Of a stretch of DNA of 64,000 nucleotides, positions 30,923 through 44,259 are shown in pieces. Origin of the DNA: Hydrurus foetidus (taxonomy: Eukaryota); assembly GCA_900617105.1 (NCBI GenBank), contig UYFQ01000001.1, positions 682,001 to 746,000 of the forward strand. Direction: 5' to 3'. Numbering within the stretch: position 1 is the first letter of the stretch; each line of letters starts with the position of its first letter. The notes under the pieces were generated by a model. The model saw nothing but the letters and a program-made list of their open reading frames with translations. It did not search any database and was not told the DNA's origin. The translations under genes and the position numbers were made by a program.

Positions 30923-32332
30923 TCATTCCGCGTCAGCAGCACCCGCATTCTTCAGCTCGGCGAACTTGGCCGCCATCGTCGGGTTGCCCCGCGTCAGCTT
31001 CTTGATCGTCACATCTTGCGCCTTGTCGTTCGCAAGACGCAGGTTACGGTCGGTGCCCAGCAATGCATCCTTGGTTTTCTGCAAGTGGTCAATGGATTTG
31101 TCGATCTCGTCGATGGCCTTTTTGAAGCTGTTGGACGCGAGATCGTAGTTCCGCGCGAATGCGGTTTTGAAGGTATCAAGGCTGGTCTCAAAATTCGTGA
31201 TGTCAATGCTCTGCGCCTTGACCAGCGCAAGCTCCGATTTGTACTTGAGCGAGTTCATCGCAGCGTTGCGCAGCAGCGTGATGATGGGGATAAAAAACTG
31301 TGGGCGGATGATGTACATCTTGGGGTAGCGGTGGAACACATCCACGATGCCGGTGTTGTACAGCTCGCTGTCGGGCTCCAGCAGGGAGACCAGCACGGCA
31401 TATTCGCACCCCTTCTCAAGGCGATCCTTGTCCAGCTCCTTCAAAAAGTCCTCGTTCTTGTTCTTGGTGGTGGTGCGGTCGTCCTCATTTTTCATCTCAA
31501 ACATGATGGAGACGATCTCGGTGCCTGCTTCGTCCAGGTCGCGAAAAATGTAGTCCCCTTTGCTGCCCGTCCGCGCATCGTTGTCTTTTTCGAAATAGGC
31601 CCGTGGAAACGCCGTCGCGCGAATGCGGTTGAACTCCGTCTCGCAGTGCTGCTCCAGCGTCTCGCCCACCATCTTGGTAGACAGGCGAGCCTTCATGTCG
31701 CGCAAGCGCTCAATCGCATCATCGCGGTCTTTGATCTGCGTCTCAAACTTGTCTTTGAGCGACTTCTCTGCGAGTTGCTTCTCAAGCTCAGCCCGCGCCA
31801 GACCATTCTTCAACGCGTCGCGTTCCCGCTCGACCCCATTCACCGCCTCGGTGATCGCCAGCTTTTGCATGACCTCAGTGGCATCGAGTTTGGCCTTCAG
31901 CCCTTGAATCTCCGCGTCCTTGGTCGCAGCGGCATTCTGTAGCCTGCTTGCCAGCTTCGCCTCGGCCAGCTCAGAAGCCGCCAGCTTTTCACGCTTGGCC
32001 TGATCCAGCTCGTTCGCCAGCGCGTCACGCTCTTTGTGCACCGCACTCAGGGCCTCGGTCACGGCCAGCTTACGCGCAACCTCACCCGCATCAAGCCTGG
32101 CCTTGAGCGCCTGGATTTCGGAATCCTTGGCGACAGCCGTCTTCTGCATGGCGCTGGCAACCTGGGCCTGGGCAAGCTCGACGGCATTGCGCTTGTCTTG
32201 CTCGGCCAATTCAAGCCGCTCATGCAACTGCTGCTCGAACGCGCCATCGCGCACTTGCTTCAGGATATCGGCGTACCCCGCCTCGTCGATTTTGAATGCT
32301 TTGTTGCAATGGGGGCAGATGATTTCGTGCAT
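30923..32332 (-). CDS. DUF2130-domain coiled-coil protein
   Basis: Starts MHEIICPHC, then a long coiled coil, [21 protein letters not shown] and IMFEMKNE (PD-(D/E)xK-like). Confidence 0.88.
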
Positions 32333-32532
32333 GGGGAAAGGAACTCTTCTTGTTGGTTGGACTGGCAGGTGCGCATCTTTAAACAAGGCGCTGACCAGCC
32401 TAGCATGCCGCGGGACGACTGCGTGGTGACTTGGTCGTCCGGCGCTGGATTGACGGGTGAGCGTCAATTTAAAAATAGGATACTTTCGAGACCCAGGTCT
32501 CTCATTTCAAATTCTGACTAGGTGGCGATTCG

Positions 32533-34830
32533 TCAAATATCGCCTTGAAAATGCTGTCGGCACCTTTCAAGAAAGACTTCAAATCTCCCTTCAGCAGAGG
32601 ATAGACAATTATTAATAAAATGTAAGGGCAGGCCAAGCTTAAATCTTCGCTGAGTGTTGCCTCCGCGATTTTCAATTTCAATAATTACTTTAGTAGTTTG
32701 TAAAGTAGGTAGTTCATTGTCAATAAAACCTTGCCCCTTGTCACCAAGTCGTATTTTTATTATAGATTCACTTATGTGTGTGCTACGTGTAAAGTACCGT
32801 AGTAATTTTTGAAGATGCAAAACTTCTGGATCAATTCCAAACTCAGGAACATCATCGAATGATTTGATACTAATTTGGTTATCAAATGAAAATCCAAGTT
32901 TCTCTAAATTGGCCTTGATAGCAAATGGCTCCCAAATTTCATGACCAGATTCAGAGAATTTAAGTGAATCGACAGTGCATTCGTTCAATGTGACGTTTGA
33001 AAATATCGAATTTGGATATAACTGCATTTGTCCGAATTTGCATTGAGTGAATGTGCAGTTTTTCAGTGTCGTGGCCTCATACCGACCCAGGGAGAAGTAG
33101 CAATGATCAAATGAGATGTCCGTAAGTGAACAATCAAACAATGCATCAACACCAAAAGTTAGTCCTTCTACCTTTAAATCGGCATCGTCAATTCCATTCA
33201 ATAGGCGAATTACAAGATGTCCACAATTTTCTTGCGTGTAAGAGGCCTGCCCATCCAGTTCGCCGACACTCGCAACTAGCGCCGCTGCTTGCTTGCGCTC
33301 CATTGCAGAATTACGGTCAATTGCGCGAATAAATGAAAGTCTCGCATGATCTGGGAGGATGCTTCTACGAACCACGCTTAACAACTCTGACTTTGCGCTT
33401 CCATTGCTTGGCCGTAATATGTCTGCCAATCCCTCGCCGAGGAAAAACTGTCGAAACTCATCGTGATCAAATTCAACGGCTGATGGAGCGTCTCGAGAGG
33501 AAACCAATAAAGCATGACCGCGGATCCTCTCTCTAATCTGATGTGCCTGTAGAGATGGTTTTCTCTTCAATTCGCAAAAGTAATCTGCAACGACATCAAG
33601 ATGATCCAATTTAAGAAAACTAACTCTCGATTCCCACATATTTACAGCAATCATCGCTAGTAGTTCACAATGTTCTTCTGTAGATAAGAGCGATGTCGCG
33701 ACTTCACCTCCAGAGCGATCAATCCATTTCTCCTTGGCCTCCCGATCAATAATTCCGCGAACAAAAACAGAGAAAAAATCAGCACCTGAAATTTGAATCT
33801 GTTCTAAGAAATTTTCCAGTGAATCAGATGAATTGGCAATATCTATAAGTCGTCGCACCAAAACGGGACGAGTCAAAAGGGAGTGGTTTTCTCCGAGCCG
33901 ATCTTTGACGCTTGAGTATGTCTGATATGGATTTATAACTCCTCTAGCTGTGCAGTATTCTAGAAACTGTTTTTTCCCCCAGCGCCGGAGTTCTAATTTG
34001 GAAAATCCAACGGATTGGCTACTAATACTATCGTAAAGTTTTTCTTGAGATTTGAGGTTTTCAAATTCAAAATAAGCCTTTCTTGCCGCGACTACAAAAC
34101 ATCCTGCTGATTTGAGCGCATCAACTAGTATGCCCATGGCAGATAGGGCTTCTCCAGAGCTGTTCTCAACAAACATCTCTTCAAAGCCGTCGAAAGCCGG
34201 TATTATTACCCCCATTCGTACCAATGCAAGAAATGAGTTGTAGTATAAAAATGGAAATCTGTATTTGTTTTGCAATGCACCAACTGTAATGTCGTCAAAT
34301 CGCAAGAAATGTCTTCCACCTAAAACAATAGGAACTAGTAGCCAGTCAGATTTGCCATCGGAAAAATTTTTGGCTTGGGTTCGCGCAGCTGCATTGATTA
34401 ACCAAGTTTTACCTTCACCAGCGTCACTTGTAATATAGAGCACGGTAGTTTCCAAAGGGCTTTTTGATTCCAATGAATCTAATAAGGTGTGACGAGCATC
34501 GGAAACTTCGTATGCTTGACCATCTGGTTGCTTGTCAAGCGTTGGCAAGAGATTGGCAGATGGGGATATGAAATTGTGTTCTATCGGAATTTGTTCCGTA
34601 AGCCTAGCAGCCAATAGTGGCAAATTTGCAAGGCGATTTACTATCCAATGACTGGCCGAAATAGCTGTACTATTGTTCTCTGAGACATAAATATCTCCAG
34701 ATTTGGCGCTAATGGCTGCTTCAATTACATCGCCATTTATCGAAAAAACTAACCGTTGTTTTTCATATAAAAGTTCAGTGCCAGGATCGGAGAATGTGGA
34801 TACTATTGATTTAAACTGATCTATTTGCAT
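32533..34830 (-). CDS. NACHT/STAND-like P-loop NTPase with C-terminal pentapeptide-like repeats
   Basis: Walker A YITSDAGEGKT, Walker B IIPAFDGFEE, TRPVL, winged-helix-like EFDHDEFRQFF and 5-residue periodicity (LTDISFDHCYF...LKNCTFTQCKF). AT-rich. Confidence 0.8.
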   Translation of the reverse strand: MQIDQFKSIVSTFSDPGTELLYEKQRLVFSINGDVIEAAISAKSGDIYVSENNSTAISASHWIVNRLANLPLLAARLTEQIPIEHNFISPSANLLPTLDKQPDGQAYEVSDARHTLLDSLESKSPLETTVLYITSDAGEGKTWLINAAARTQAKNFSDGKSDWLLVPIVLGGRHFLRFDDITVGALQNKYRFPFLYYNSFLALVRMGVIIPAFDGFEEMFVENSSGEALSAMGILVDALKSAGCFVVAARKAYFEFENLKSQEKLYDSISSQSVGFSKLELRRWGKKQFLEYCTARGVINPYQTYSSVKDRLGENHSLLTRPVLVRRLIDIANSSDSLENFLEQIQISGADFFSVFVRGIIDREAKEKWIDRSGGEVATSLLSTEEHCELLAMIAVNMWESRVSFLKLDHLDVVADYFCELKRKPSLQAHQIRERIRGHALLVSSRDAPSAVEFDHDEFRQFFLGEGLADILRPSNGSAKSELLSVVRRSILPDHARLSFIRAIDRNSAMERKQAAALVASVGELDGQASYTQENCGHLVIRLLNGIDDADLKVEGLTFGVDALFDCSLTDISFDHCYFSLGRYEATTLKNCTFTQCKFGQMQLYPNSIFSNVTLNECTVDSLKFSESGHEIWEPFAIKANLEKLGFSFDNQISIKSFDDVPEFGIDPEVLHLQKLLRYFTRSTHISESIIKIRLGDKGQGFIDNELPTLQTTKVIIEIENRGGNTQRRFKLGLPLHFINNCLSSAEGRFEVFLERCRQHFQGDI

Positions 34831-34832
34831 AT

Positions 34833-35546
34833 CTAAATTTCCAATTCCAAAAGGGGTTGTCCAGCTATTTCAATGGTGACTCTATGAGAGCTGAATTTGG
34901 GGTGTACTCTAATGATTTTTGATCCCCGCAAAGCAATCGTTCTTATGGGGGGCAAAAAATCGTCATCTTCACTAATTATTAGCAGTTCGTCATAGTCTTG
35001 TTGGGAAAGGTAAATCAGATCACAAGTGAGCATGGTGTCAACAATCTTCTGCTCGTGGCGATATATTAGTATTTGATCGCCTGCAGAGCAATTGCCGATC
35101 GAGCATTTTCCAGTTTTTAGCATTTTTCGAGCTACGGGAATTGGACAAGAACTGCTACTACAGCCGACGTGCTCTTGACTTTCAACTCTAATATTTTGTG
35201 CTCTTGACTTTTTTCTGTAAGTATTAAATAGATGATAGTTAGGTTCTTCCAAGAGTGACACGGCTAATTCAACAGTAGTATTAATAGAGCAATACGTTCC
35301 ACTTGCGTCTGTTACCCGTATTAACGCGGGGAACTCTTCTTGCATTTTTATGGAAATTTGTTGCGAGAGCTGACTCATTTCTTGGCCCTCAAACCAGCCG
35401 CCGTACAAGCGGATATGACACACACCTTGTTTTGGTAGCGAACGGAATTGCATTTTCTGCAGCACACTAGTCACAATAGATAATATGCCTGATATCTTCT
35501 GCATCGGATGCAAATTATCGTAGTCTATACAAATGGCGATTTTCAT
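34833..35546 (-). CDS. NYN-domain (LabA/DUF88, PIN-like) nuclease with a Cys4 insert
   Basis: ICIDYDN, EQKIVDTMLTCD and LIISEDDDFLP carry the acidic NYN motifs, with a C-x4-C-x13-C-x4-C insert. AT-rich. Confidence 0.82.
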   Translation of the reverse strand: MKIAICIDYDNLHPMQKISGILSIVTSVLQKMQFRSLPKQGVCHIRLYGGWFEGQEMSQLSQQISIKMQEEFPALIRVTDASGTYCSINTTVELAVSLLEEPNYHLFNTYRKKSRAQNIRVESQEHVGCSSSSCPIPVARKMLKTGKCSIGNCSAGDQILIYRHEQKIVDTMLTCDLIYLSQQDYDELLIISEDDDFLPPIRTIALRGSKIIRVHPKFSSHRVTIEIAGQPLLELEI

Positions 35547-35589
35547 TAAATGTTGCGTGTTAAATTGAACTGAGATACACGTCGAACAT

Positions 35590-36060
35590 ACTGTTCGCGC
35601 TTGATGAAATCACCAACCTCTGCGTTGCCCTTGTCGCCGCCACATAAAACACCCGCGCCGCGCCAGCCGCTCACGTGCTTCAAGCAACGCTGCGTGCAGC
35701 TTTTGCTCCAGCTCCGCTTTAGGTGGCAGTTCGGTCCAATATTCGGCCACGGTGATGCCGTCTTTGTGCATTTGCAGAAGCTCCACCTGTTCGCGGCTGG
35801 ATTCGGCGCACAGGATGAGGCCGATGGGTCTCTTCGCCCGGTTGGTGCTCGTGTTTGTCCAGCCTTTTGAGGTGTAATAAGTTGATAAAGTGGCTCCAGC
35901 TCAATTGTCGTGACAGTGTCGCGACAAACTGGGTAAACGGCAGGACAAGCTGCACCATGTGTCGCGAGGTTTTTGCCGACAGTGTCGACACAATTGCCGC
36001 AATTGGGAACGCGTCGGCAAACTCCACCACGTGACTCATGTTGGTTGCCATTGGCATGAC
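35590..36060 (-). pseudogene. YhcG/DUF1016 PDDEXK nuclease relic, internally deleted and frameshifted
   Basis: The N-terminal motif VATLSRQLSWSHF is joined directly to the C-terminal LDKHEHQPGEET, then a frame change to PIGLILCAESSREQVELLQMHKDGITVAEYWTELPP. Confidence 0.75.
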
Positions 36061-36092
36061 TGGCGGGCGTATTAATGTCTTTGGTTGGACGC

Positions 36093-36386
36093 TCACGGTG
36101 CCTGAATTGCTCCGTGCTCGGTAAACGCAAAAAGCAACGCCTTTGAAAATTTCAGATTTTGGAGGTGGTCGCAATTTGCGACTACCTCGGTTTTCTCATC
36201 AGCCGTAAGCTGAAAGAGGAAATCGCTGGGAAAGCGGTCCCGGTTGCGTTTGACCTGCTCATTAAGCCGCTTGGTCTGTACCCCGTACAGCGCAGCCAAG
36301 TCCACATCCAGCATGACCCGCAGGCCGCGAATCACTTGGATACGGCGCTCAATACGCGGCACCAGGTTGTGTGTTGTCTCGTTCAT
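36093..36386 (-). pseudogene. ORF6N-domain DNA-binding protein, C-terminally truncated
   Basis: IRGLRVMLDVDLAALYGVQTKRLNEQVKRNRDRFPSDFLFQLT...AFTEHGAIQA followed by an early stop. Confidence 0.8.
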
Positions 36387-36492
36387 GTTGTTTTCCTGGT
36401 CATGTTCCCTGACTCCCTCCATCCCTAACCATCCCAATCACCATCATCCCACAACGGTGGCCCGCGCACCGGGGGGTAAATCCGGGGGCACG

Positions 36493-42264: not shown

Positions 42265-42696
42265 TTACACCAGCGGATTCACGGTGGCCAAGGCTTTGTA
42301 GCGGCTGAAGTCGCGGTCTGCACTCCACAGCACGGAAACGCCGTTTTCCAGGCAAATAGCGGCAATGCGGGCATCGTGGAATTGACCCCCTTGGAGCTTG
42401 GCTTGTTGGGTTAGCTCTGACAGCACCCGCCAGTGCTGGGGGCCGCTGTGCAAGATGTGCATTCTGGGGGCTTCAAGCCATGCGTCGATTTGCGCCAGCG
42501 CTTGGGTATAGCTGCTGGCGGGGCTGAAAATTTTGGGGTTGGTCACCACGGCCAAGAACTCATGCAGGCAACTGACGGGGATTCCCCAGTGCTGGCGACC
42601 TTCTGCCAGGGCGGTGACGCAGGCATAGGCTGCTGCGTGGAAGGTAGATTCTGCGCGGTGGGCATAAACCAGCACGTTGGTGTCAACGGCAATCAT
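42265..42696 (-). CDS. vapC: VapC-family PIN toxin (module 1)
   Basis: MIAVDTNVLVYA, EFLAVVT, HDARIAA and SADRDF; start reassigned. Confidence 0.9.
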   Translation of the reverse strand: MIAVDTNVLVYAHRAESTFHAAAYACVTALAEGRQHWGIPVSCLHEFLAVVTNPKIFSPASSYTQALAQIDAWLEAPRMHILHSGPQHWRVLSELTQQAKLQGGQFHDARIAAICLENGVSVLWSADRDFSRYKALATVNPLV

Positions 42697-42980
42697 TCTG
42701 GGGCTGCGCTGCTGCGGGTGGGGCTGGGGGGGACTGCCCATGCTGCGGCTACATGGGCTTCTTCCATTTCGCGCCATTGCCTGGGGTCTGCCACCAAGGT
42801 GGCGCCGCCGTGTACCCGTGCATCTTTGAGCTTGAAGCTGGGTTCGGGCTGGGTTTGTGCTTCGTGAAGTACCCGGCGCAGCCCTTCTTCAATCAAGGCT
42901 CGCAAGCTGGTGTGGCTGCTGCGGGCCAGTTCTTTGGCCGATTCAAACAGGGCATCGGACAGGTCAATGGTGGTTTTCAT
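42693..42980 (-). CDS. vapB: RHH-type VapB antitoxin (module 1)
   Basis: MKTTIDLSDALFESAKELA...SLRALIEEGLRRVL; overlaps the toxin start. Confidence 0.85.
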   Translation of the reverse strand: MKTTIDLSDALFESAKELARSSHTSLRALIEEGLRRVLHEAQTQPEPSFKLKDARVHGGATLVADPRQWREMEEAHVAAAWAVPPSPTRSSAAPE

Positions 42981-42985
42981 ATGGG

Positions 42986-43009
42986 CACCCGTATTTTTAA
43001 ATATGGGTG
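42986..43009. promoter_or_regulatory. Inverted repeat, probable antitoxin operator (module 1)
   Basis: CACCCGTATTT-TT-AAATATGGGTG (11-bp arms, 1 mismatch) directly upstream of the antitoxin start. Confidence 0.55.
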
Positions 43010-43022
43010 TATTTTAGGCGAT

Positions 43023-43475
43023 TTATTCGCGCAGCCAGTTTTCCACCCGCAAGCCGGGCACGCGCTTGAATTCGGTGTCGTTGTCGGTCACGAGCGTGCA
43101 GTCCAGTGCCAGGGCGTGGGCGGCGATTAAGGTGTCGTTGGGGCCTATAGGGGTGCCTTGACACTCTAGGTGGGTGCGGATGGTGGCGTAGTGTGCAATG
43201 AGGCTGGCATCCATCGGCATGGGGCGAATGAACTTCAGCATGGTGGCAATTTTGAGTGCAAGTTGTTCCGCCCCGGCTTTGGTGGCACCAAAGATCAATT
43301 CGCATTGCACGATCAGACTGGTACATAGGCTTTGCGGGTCTGCCAAATCCATCCTTTGCAGGCGCAATGCCAAGCTGCCATGAGGGTTGCGGATGGCGTG
43401 CGAAATGATGTTGGTATCGAGCATCCAACGGTTTTCAGCCGCTGAAGTCGCGGCTGTTGTTGGCGTTTTTCTCAT
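43023..43475 (-). CDS. vapC: VapC-family PIN toxin (module 2)
   Basis: MLDTNII, IGPNDTLIAAHA and LVTDNDTEFKRVPGLRVENW. Confidence 0.92.
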   Translation of the reverse strand: MRKTPTTAATSAAENRWMLDTNIISHAIRNPHGSLALRLQRMDLADPQSLCTSLIVQCELIFGATKAGAEQLALKIATMLKFIRPMPMDASLIAHYATIRTHLECQGTPIGPNDTLIAAHALALDCTLVTDNDTEFKRVPGLRVENWLRE

Positions 43476-43765
43476 AGAACAATATCGTCCAAGGGCAGTA
43501 AACCCTCGTCAACATCGGGGAACGGCTCTTCAATCGGTTCCCAATCTTTCATGGCTTCAAGCAGAGTGGCAAGACCGGGGCGGGCCGGTTCAATAATCAG
43601 TTTGTTGCCAACCCGTGTCATCGTGGCATCTTGGGTGGGGAATTCAAATTCACGCGGGATGCGCAGGGCTTGGTTGGCCCCGTTGCGGAACAGGCGGATG
43701 TTGCGCGTGGCGGAAACATCGGCGGTGGGGTCTGTGCGCCGTTGGGGCTGGGTTTGGGCTTGCAT
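43472..43765 (-). CDS. vapB: AbrB-type VapB/VagC antitoxin (module 2)
   Basis: RLFRNGANQALRIPREFEF and an acidic C-terminus; ATGA overlap with the toxin. Confidence 0.9.
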   Translation of the reverse strand: MQAQTQPQRRTDPTADVSATRNIRLFRNGANQALRIPREFEFPTQDATMTRVGNKLIIEPARPGLATLLEAMKDWEPIEEPFPDVDEGLLPLDDIVL

Positions 43766-43804
43766 GGCGGGTCTCCTGAAGCGGCTGAGGCTTTCAGTTT
43801 AGCC

Positions 43805-43822
43805 TATGCCTTGGCATATGCC
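43805..43822. promoter_or_regulatory. Overlapping palindromes, probable antitoxin operator (module 2)
   Basis: TATGCC-TT-GGCATA overlapping GGCATATGCC, about 40 bp upstream of the antitoxin start. Confidence 0.5.
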
Positions 43823-43857
43823 TAATGTGCCTGTGCAGCTCAAATGGCGGGAGGGGT

Positions 43858-44259
43858 TCACGCCTCGTACCAGTTTTCCAGCCGCAAGCCGGGCACGCGC
43901 TCGAACTCTCGGGTGTTGCGGGTGACGAGAGTCAGGTTATTGGCCAGTGCAATGCCTGCAATCAGCAGATCGTAGGGGCCAATGACACAGCCGCTTTTTT
44001 CCAGCGTGGCCCGCAGTTGGCCTGCTGCTGCTGCACTGTTCGCATCCAAGGGTAAAAAATGGTAGCGGACTAAAGCGGCATCCAAAAACAAGCGCAATGG
44101 CTTGGGGTGGGTTGATTTGGCGATGCCGCGTTCTATTTCCGTCACGTTGAGGGCACACAGGCAGAGGGCTTCAGCGCTGTGGCTGTGTATTTTGCTGCGG
44201 CACGCCCCTTGGTTTTTATAGGCGTAGATCAGGATGTTGGTGTCGAGCAGGTAGCGCAT
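43858..44259 (-). CDS. vapC: VapC-family PIN toxin (module 3)
   Basis: MRYLLDTNILIY, IGPYDLLIAGIA and LVTRNTREFERVPGLRLENW. Confidence 0.92.
   Translation of the reverse strand: MRYLLDTNILIYAYKNQGACRSKIHSHSAEALCLCALNVTEIERGIAKSTHPKPLRLFLDAALVRYHFLPLDANSAAAAGQLRATLEKSGCVIGPYDLLIAGIALANNLTLVTRNTREFERVPGLRLENWYEA

Follow-up and report, generated by a model that had tools for sequence, protein, structure and literature searches.

A widespread, apparently unnamed two-gene cassette of a NYN nuclease and a variant NACHT-type NTPase

Bacterial NACHT proteins (bNACHT; Kibby et al., 10.1101/2022.07.19.500537) and Avs proteins (Lee et al., PMC12803255 / PMC13581612) are anti-phage proteins of the STAND class (signal transduction ATPases with numerous domains), whose members, according to the same works, usually switch their effectors on by oligomerising. 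We analysed a pair of genes in a 64-kb stretch of DNA (contig UYFQ01000001.1, positions 682,001 to 746,000, from the Hydrurus foetidus assembly GCA_900617105.1), which we call the window. Two open reading frames (ORFs) on its minus strand fill positions 32533-35546: a 237-aa gene for a NYN nuclease, then a 765-aa gene for a NACHT-type nucleoside triphosphatase (NTPase), whose start lies 2 nt past the NYN stop (TAG-AT-ATG). This block has a GC content of 40.8%, against 56.1% across the window, and the change is sharp at both ends, near 32500 and near 35600. A sequence-only reading of the window had described an AT-rich block of ~3 kb with two genes on one strand, 2 nt apart; the ORFs and the GC content agree with it, and every motif that it quoted for the two proteins was located in the translations. 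We conclude that the pair is a real, widespread and apparently unnamed two-gene cassette. Since its genes travel together across bacterial groups and often adjoin known anti-virus genes, it probably provides defence of some kind against phage or other mobile elements.

The cassette NTPase resembles bNACHT proteins in having a NACHT module with a histidine in its winged-helix domain (WHD), a repeat-type C-terminal region, bacterial hosts and a location near defence genes, and pentapeptide repeats are among the sensor types listed for bNACHT (10.1101/2022.07.19.500537). It differs from them in its obligate NYN partner gene, in its DGFEE Walker B motif, in that no fused enzymatic effector was found, and in a fixed N-terminus and length (740-786 aa), whereas bNACHT effectors vary. 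With Avs1-24 it shares a STAND switch, proposed in those proteins to form oligomers on a phage protein and release a cell-killing effector (PMC12803255 / PMC13581612). In the main texts their sensors are described mostly as TPR-like, WD40 or FGE. With its beta-solenoid the cassette offers a kind of STAND sensor that is missing from the main text of this survey, the largest of those compared here. HEC-03 is likewise a two-gene defence system of an ATPase and a PIN-fold nuclease, both genes being needed (10.1101/2024.01.29.577857), but its ATPase is of the ABC type rather than NACHT. HEC-09, from the same paper, is a MARF1-like NYN, as here, but it is a single gene that gave no defence and its profile covers only the ~55-residue catalytic end of the cassette NYN; HEC systems also share the cassette's habit of embedding inside type I restriction-modification (RM) operons. 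Catalytic residues are needed for defence in the PIN nucleases DS-3 and DS-5 and in the NACHT protein DS-8 (PMC13092281). By their descriptions there, none of these pairs a NYN with a NACHT: DS-3 is one gene of ~340 codons, DS-5 has a DUF5830/AcrIF4-like partner and DS-8 a fused metallophosphatase. The closest solved folds of the two cassette proteins include animal NLRC4 (8fvu, 4kxf) and the MARF1 NYN (5yaa), at ~12% identity; the cassette NTPase has a beta-solenoid in place of the leucine-rich repeats and no CARD. We know of no link between NLRC4 and MARF1 in animals.

The sequence-only reading had not recognised the pair as a named system, and no match to it emerged from PADLOC-DB 2.0.0, NCBIfam 20.0 or the full-text literature. 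The NTPase matched none of the PADLOC-DB 2.0.0 families at E ≤ 1, and in NCBIfam 20.0 it matched only HalA. Identity with HalA of the Hailong system was ruled out, as the match scored 24.5 bits against a cut-off of 250, was confined to the solenoid instead of covering the full architecture. Identity of the NYN with HEC-09, the NYN of PADLOC, was also ruled out: only residues 162-217 match (E 2e-4; best E 8e-6 among 98 members of the NYN family), and the cassette NYN has an obligate partner gene. Full-text searches returned no paper describing the NYN and NACHT pair, with the tables of Kibby et al. and the large clade tables of Lee et al. outside their scope; the NTPase may be catalogued in these, possibly as an untested clade in the clade and sensor tables of Lee et al. 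The main text of Kibby et al. (10.1101/2022.07.19.500537) contains neither NYN nor PIN. None of the terms NYN, PIN and pentapeptide occurs in the main texts of Lee et al. (PMC12803255 / PMC13581612), and in seven supplements of the Nature version of that work there is no NYN, no pentapeptide and neither of two family motifs; the text of 10.1101/2025.07.10.664194 lacks NYN, PIN, NACHT and STAND. PMC8195603 and PMC10853773, which use the terms in other contexts, were set aside as prior descriptions.

The pairing itself was analysed from both sides, using the best 80 of 95 NTPase loci from genomes and the best 80 of 128 NYN loci from metagenomes. A NYN gene lay directly upstream of the NTPase in 74 of the former (fragments counted) and divergent from it in two, while two loci left no room for one and two lacked it; among the latter, the NTPase followed directly downstream in 76, three left no room and one lacked it. 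Where room allows, the partner is therefore present at 76/78 loci from the NTPase side and 76/77 from the NYN side, a near-obligate co-occurrence, which answers the question raised in the sequence-only reading, whether homologs occur as a conserved pair. Intact pairs are separated by -20 to +13 nt. Across 61 intact genome pairs, 22/26 well-supported splits of the NYN tree recur in the NTPase tree, and of all splits 29/58 are common to both, where shuffled labels average 0.17. From this agreement it follows that the genes are inherited jointly, but not that their products bind. A search of the loci for a third conserved gene gave none, and type I RM genes are the only ones to recur among unrelated loci.

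Judging by record titles, the genome loci of the NTPase span what we take to be ~14 phylum-level groups. The pair is nevertheless rare (2/301 Pseudomonas genomes, one of them the seed), and its GC content falls below that of its flanks in 79/81 loci, by a mean of 8.5 points (duplicates included). The NTPase occurs on four viral contigs, in one of which (L163) a tail-fibre assembly gene flanks the pair on either side; no match to the pair was found on 72,556 plasmids or in cultured phages, nor, by blastn with the L003 pair, in complete E. coli genomes. The window's block is present at ~95-97% identity on contigs from two other public runs. In run X5, three contigs fuse position 32333 to 35608, skipping 3,274 bases, and as the shorter side of this junction is 39 letters at 85% likeness it gives a hint of an empty site in a relative. 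Taking together the low GC content, the rarity, the viral contigs and the contigs that skip the block, we regard the block as a mobile two-gene cassette. Two large polyketide/non-ribosomal peptide synthase genes have the pair inserted between them at one locus (L029:655-20013).

The model of the NTPase (pLDDT, predicted local distance difference test, 85) has NLRC4, NOD2 and NLRP3 as its top Foldseek matches (E 3e-12) and aligns to NLRC4 8fvu_B over residues 60-559 with a VIA Z of 17.7 (root-mean-square deviation, rmsd, 6.4; 404 aligned), the next row being 4.5 lower. In this alignment the model contains the nucleotide-binding domain (NBD), helical domain 1 (HD1), WHD and HD2 that form the module of the NACHT clade. 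Conservation was scored over 98 non-redundant aligned NYNs and 98 NTPases; in the latter, K141 of the Walker A motif SDAGEGKT, DGFEE (214-218), R250 and F454-D455-H456 are invariant in 98/98. Both results agree with the earlier NACHT-like label. Kibby et al. define NACHT by a Walker B of the form D[GAS]hDE, with a small residue after the Asp and two acidic residues (10.1101/2022.07.19.500537), and by this motif the NTPase is therefore best classed as a variant NACHT. Sequence profiles detect only the solenoid in the window NTPase. Pfam NACHT (PF05729) gives no match to it and weak matches to 15/63 diverse family members (best E 1e-4); Pentapeptide_4 matches 49/63 at E ≤ 0.01 and falls under the cut-off in the window protein. 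The solenoid's profile matches are to McbG-like proteins, MfpA and Qnr, and its fold matches 6uv7 (Z 10.6). The layout is fixed, with full-length matches of 740-786 aa among the best 150 of 649 representatives (E ≤ 1e-30).

Two earlier statements about the ends of this protein hold in part. It had been credited with an N-terminus of ~120 aa carrying no recognised effector, and indeed neither an enzymatic effector nor a known adaptor was found in the ~80-aa N-terminus or the ~100-aa C-terminus, both modelled as part of the whole protein; the private N-terminal part is, however, only ~60-80 aa, because the model aligns to NLRC4 from residue 60. It had also been credited with a C-terminal pentapeptide-like solenoid, which does exist (~547-650) but is not C-terminal, being followed by a conserved ~100-aa domain that had been overlooked. 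The N-terminal domain (~80 aa) has no usable match in the PDB, Pfam or the ESM Atlas, where the rows returned (0.79-0.81) are at chance level and include NACHT N-terminal helical clusters. The C-terminal domain likewise has no family in the PDB, Pfam or the ESM Atlas; judging by the order of elements in its model, it may be winged-helix-like.

For the NYN protein, the earlier assignment (a NYN/PIN nuclease with intact acidic motifs and a C-x4-C-x13-C-x4-C insert) agrees with Pfam, fold and conservation alike. Pfam NYN (PF01936) scores 31.6 bits in the window protein, above the curated cut-off of 24.2. The best structural matches of the model (pLDDT 84) are 2qip (Z 11.7; 139 residues aligned at rmsd 3.0) and the mouse MARF1 NYN 5yaa (Z 11.1; 137 residues at rmsd 3.7); the next row has a Z of 7.7, and 5' nuclease folds rank here at Z 7.1-7.7. 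Foldseek returned nothing for this model at E ≤ 0.001 (best 2qip, E 0.01), and sequence searches of the PDB gave no significant match for either protein. Invariant in 98/98 NYNs are D8, N11, Y48, W51, Q166, K167, D170, D176, D194 and D196, as well as C129, C134 and C148, with the four-cysteine pattern present in all 98. We infer that the Cys4 insert binds zinc, and by analogy with other NYN proteins this one is probably an RNase.

A second, distant pair of NYN and NACHT genes (L058:14824-17782), located ~2.5 kb away from a first-family pair, revealed a sister family. Its NTPase family has 482 matches at E ≤ 1e-40, some of which may belong to the first family, and aligns to the first NTPase family over 722 columns at 20% identity with both terminal domains covered. 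The sister NTPase has a DGFDE Walker B and usually a Pfam NACHT match, which is above the cut-off in P0480; none was found on viral contigs. A NYN gene lies upstream in 5/5 sister NTPase copies fetched (L208-L213 being among the sister loci), one of them in frameshifted pieces, and one genome (G417) carries two tandem copies of the sister pair. This NYN lacks the Cys4 insert. Because the sister family has the pairing without the insert, the pairing is, on these sequences, the older of the two and the insert not a defining feature, so that the early emphasis on the insert was over-weighted. An apparent NYN-NACHT fusion in the sister family (P0480, 971 aa) was not counted as a natural fusion, because it is a single sequence whose junction looks like the ordinary NYN end read in a shifted frame.

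The neighbourhood of the cassette was examined with a simple ORF caller, taking at most the two nearest genes per side of at least 110 aa within 4 kb. After removal of 11 duplicate or rearranged loci this gave 336 proteins from 97 loci, to be set against 155 proteins from 40 random 12-kb windows on 36 contigs of the same genomes. Components of named systems were counted from a PADLOC scan (E ≤ 1e-12) and classed by hand. Excluded from both counts were matches to generic ABC ATPases, kinases, ankyrin, TPR and sigma-54 AAA proteins, to cyclase, oxidoreductase, exonuclease and prophage methylase, and candidate-only or weak matches (L036, L038, L059, L065 and L080 among the test loci, L170 among the controls). 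A known defence neighbour was present at 34/97 test loci against 4/40 controls (odds ratio 4.9, Fisher p 0.003), an enrichment that the sequence-only reading had proposed to look for. Type I RM genes were the neighbours at 17/97 loci against 0/40 random windows, and type II/III/IIG RM genes at five; the others were DarT, DarG, Qat, SoFic, Nsn/PARIS-like, Dsr1, Gabija (twice), BREX, PD-Lambda-1, PD-Lambda-5 and SIR2-Argonaute-like. In at least eight loci the pair lies between hsdM/hsdS and hsdR, all on one strand, a position where, according to Payne et al. (10.1101/2024.01.29.577857), many defence genes are embedded. At another locus (L008:1985-12280) a Qat system, its qatC region broken by transposase-like ORFs, immediately precedes the pair.

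Steps inferred from work on Avs and bNACHT proteins can be assembled into a mechanism for the cassette. The resting NTPase would be an ADP-bound monomer held by His456 of the WHD, as in other STAND proteins. Recognition of a phage product by the solenoid and the C-terminal domain would be followed by nucleotide exchange and oligomerisation of the NTPase; bound NYN subunits would then be clustered and activated, and would cut cellular RNA, halting the infected cell. We give this model as a whole, from C-terminal sensing to arrest, an even chance of being right. Characterised bacterial NLR-like (NOD-like receptor-like) proteins mostly have their effector on the same chain. Avs1, Avs3 and CARD-NLR, however, are STAND systems with extra genes, and an effector acting in trans is therefore not unprecedented. 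If the model is true, the separate, obligate effector parallels animal NLRs, which recruit effectors in trans, and NYN nucleases, having failed in two single-gene defence tests, gain a defined role and an activator. As the cassette consists of two short genes with clear point mutants, including that of the WHD histidine, it is testable without knowledge of the phage trigger; mutation of the counterpart histidine in bNACHT25 produces auto-activation (10.1101/2022.07.19.500537).

Several observations weigh against this model or against a defensive role in general. Two solitary NYNs, HEC-09 (10.1101/2024.01.29.577857) and NYND (PMC13092281), gave no defence, which fits a need for a partner yet calls for caution. 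The first Gly of Walker A is replaced by Ser in 96/98 NTPases and the Walker B DGFEE of all 98, though it has the small residue after the Asp, puts Glu in place of the second Asp of the NACHT signature; the nucleotide handling may therefore differ from that of canonical NACHTs. The NYN is inverted and divergent from the NTPase in two Longimicrobiales genomes (L051:9040-12247, L080:9054-12235), and for one of the two neighbourless NTPases it lies on another contig of the same genome (L053, L205, G035). No known defence gene is present among the scanned neighbours at 63/97 loci, the enrichment is weaker in genome loci alone (22/74 vs 4/40, p 0.019), and it includes phylogenetically non-independent related loci and matches classed by hand. 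The same caution applies to the predicted complex. Three runs with NTPase residues 1-758, the NYN and zinc gave scores of 0.10, 0.55 and 0.52, hence a median of 0.52, and the best control reached 0.00; the runs have at least 54% of contacts in common and a partner pLDDT of at least 79. In calibration 51/78 solved and 2/108 mismatched pairs reached the mark, but at or below 0.60 it was reached by just 5 of the 78 solved pairs and by every one of the 4 mismatches that passed. The score therefore lies in a range in which a pass is wrong more often than right; one run of the three scored 0.10, and 7/44 blind neighbour pairs likewise pass. The complex model, proposed earlier as a check, separates the pair from its controls and lends weak support to binding between NYN and NTPase; it returned no interface that would place the docking at the N-terminal domain, the adaptor put forward in the sequence-only reading.

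A more ambitious version of the trans-effector model is tentative, and we doubt it somewhat more than we believe it. The cassette could be a bacterial inflammasome-like system in which a NACHT sensor of fixed architecture, with solenoid and winged-helix-like domain, recruits a separate NYN ribonuclease via a new adaptor surface; what it senses may be nucleic acid instead of a phage protein. Its deep families number at least two, one having the Cys4 insert and one lacking it, and it would give NYN its first defence role under an NLR-type switch.

Another way to view the pair is that the NTPase keeps a constitutively active NYN inactive and frees it once a phage product binds, as has precedents in PARIS and toxin-antitoxin defence. 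Near-obligate pairing, tight translational coupling and the weakly predicted binding in a resting state would suit such an arrangement, as would the finding of an intact NTPase with a broken NYN match in six genome loci against one of the reverse. This asymmetry is biased, however, because the loci were found by their NTPase, L022 is merely cut by the contig end and several assemblies have frameshifts. STAND proteins, moreover, usually activate their effectors by oligomerising, and L205 has an intact NYN without an adjacent NTPase, though one lies on another contig of the genome. We consider restraint and release unlikely.

In a defence directed at invading DNA, the targets of the solenoid and the winged-helix-like domain would be DNA or enzymes that process it, and the NYN fold would cut DNA or guard the resident restriction enzyme, much as PrrC guards a restriction enzyme from the same hsdS-hsdR position. 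The profile matches of the solenoid to the DNA mimics MfpA and Qnr, the conserved Arg residues of the C-terminal domain, the rank of the 5' nuclease folds and the loci inside RM operons all point this way. The hsdS-hsdR gap is, however, a general hotspot of embedded genes (10.1101/2024.01.29.577857), and the top two fold matches of the NYN model are of NYN type, well above the DNA nucleases. At 80/97 loci, this window included, there is no type I RM gene among the scanned neighbours, and we regard the DNA-directed reading as quite improbable. Addiction modules are common on plasmids, and the pair was not found on the 72,556 plasmids searched. That the pair has no part in defence, and lands in variable regions as a selfish module for addiction or as a unit that processes RNA in response to stress, is likewise improbable: close defence neighbours are missing at roughly two thirds of loci, solitary NYNs failed in defence tests and non-defence STAND clades intermingle with defence clades (PMC12803255 / PMC13581612), but the odds of a defence neighbour are about five-fold higher than in random windows, the pair is rare yet spread across phyla, and in L163 it occupies a prophage cargo position.

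Table 1. Positions in the window of the two cassette genes, their predicted parts and the flanking genes.
Feature	Position	Strand	Evidence
NYN (PIN-like) nuclease gene, 237 aa, first of pair	34833..35546	-	Pfam NYN and fold match
First acidic motif D8-Y-D-N11	35514..35525	-	D8, N11 98/98; D10 90/98
Cys4 insert C129-x4-C-x13-C-x4-C153, predicted zinc site, directly before the QK-x-VD helix	35088..35162	-	Pattern 98/98
Rest of predicted active site: Q166-K167, D170, D176, D194-D196	34959..35051	-	Each 98/98
NACHT-type STAND NTPase gene, 765 aa	32533..34830	-	Model pLDDT 85; best matches NLRC4, NOD2, NLRP3
Small N-terminal alpha/beta domain, ~residues 1-80, candidate nuclease docking site	34591..34830	-	Helix, five strands, helix in model; conserved
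NACHT module NBD-HD1-WHD-HD2	33193..34590	-	Invariant residues; NLRC4 match over 60-559
NACHT module sub-sites	Walker A 34405-34428, Walker B DGFEE 34177-34191, WHD F-D-H456 33463-33471	-	
Pentapeptide-type beta-solenoid, ~547-650, candidate sensor	32881..33192	-	Profiles and fold match
Conserved C-terminal ~100-aa alpha/beta domain, ~662-760, conserved Arg residues	32536..32847	-	H-E-H-E-E-H-H in model; conservation
Broken, partly deleted DUF1016 (YhcG) gene, context only	35613..36174	-	DUF1016_N and YhcG_C pieces, two frames
DUF2130 gene downstream, context only	30923..32332	-	Pfam PF09903 E 1e-92

A scan for promoters and terminators remained at chance level. In the window the block is flanked upstream by the broken DUF1016 gene and an ORF6N gene, and downstream by the DUF2130 gene, which does not recur as a neighbour of the pair among the largest neighbour clusters listed. 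The ORF6N gene (in the 35613-36437 region, minus strand) matches the PADLOC candidate PDC-S05, and DUF1016 is the family of PDC-S02. Both families also adjoin the pair in L006, L011, L018 and L065; as several of these are type I RM loci, the flank may be a remnant of an island of that type. Elsewhere in the window, positions 42265-44259 hold short ORFs that by eye resemble PIN/VapC toxin-antitoxin pairs, next to a serB-like gene.

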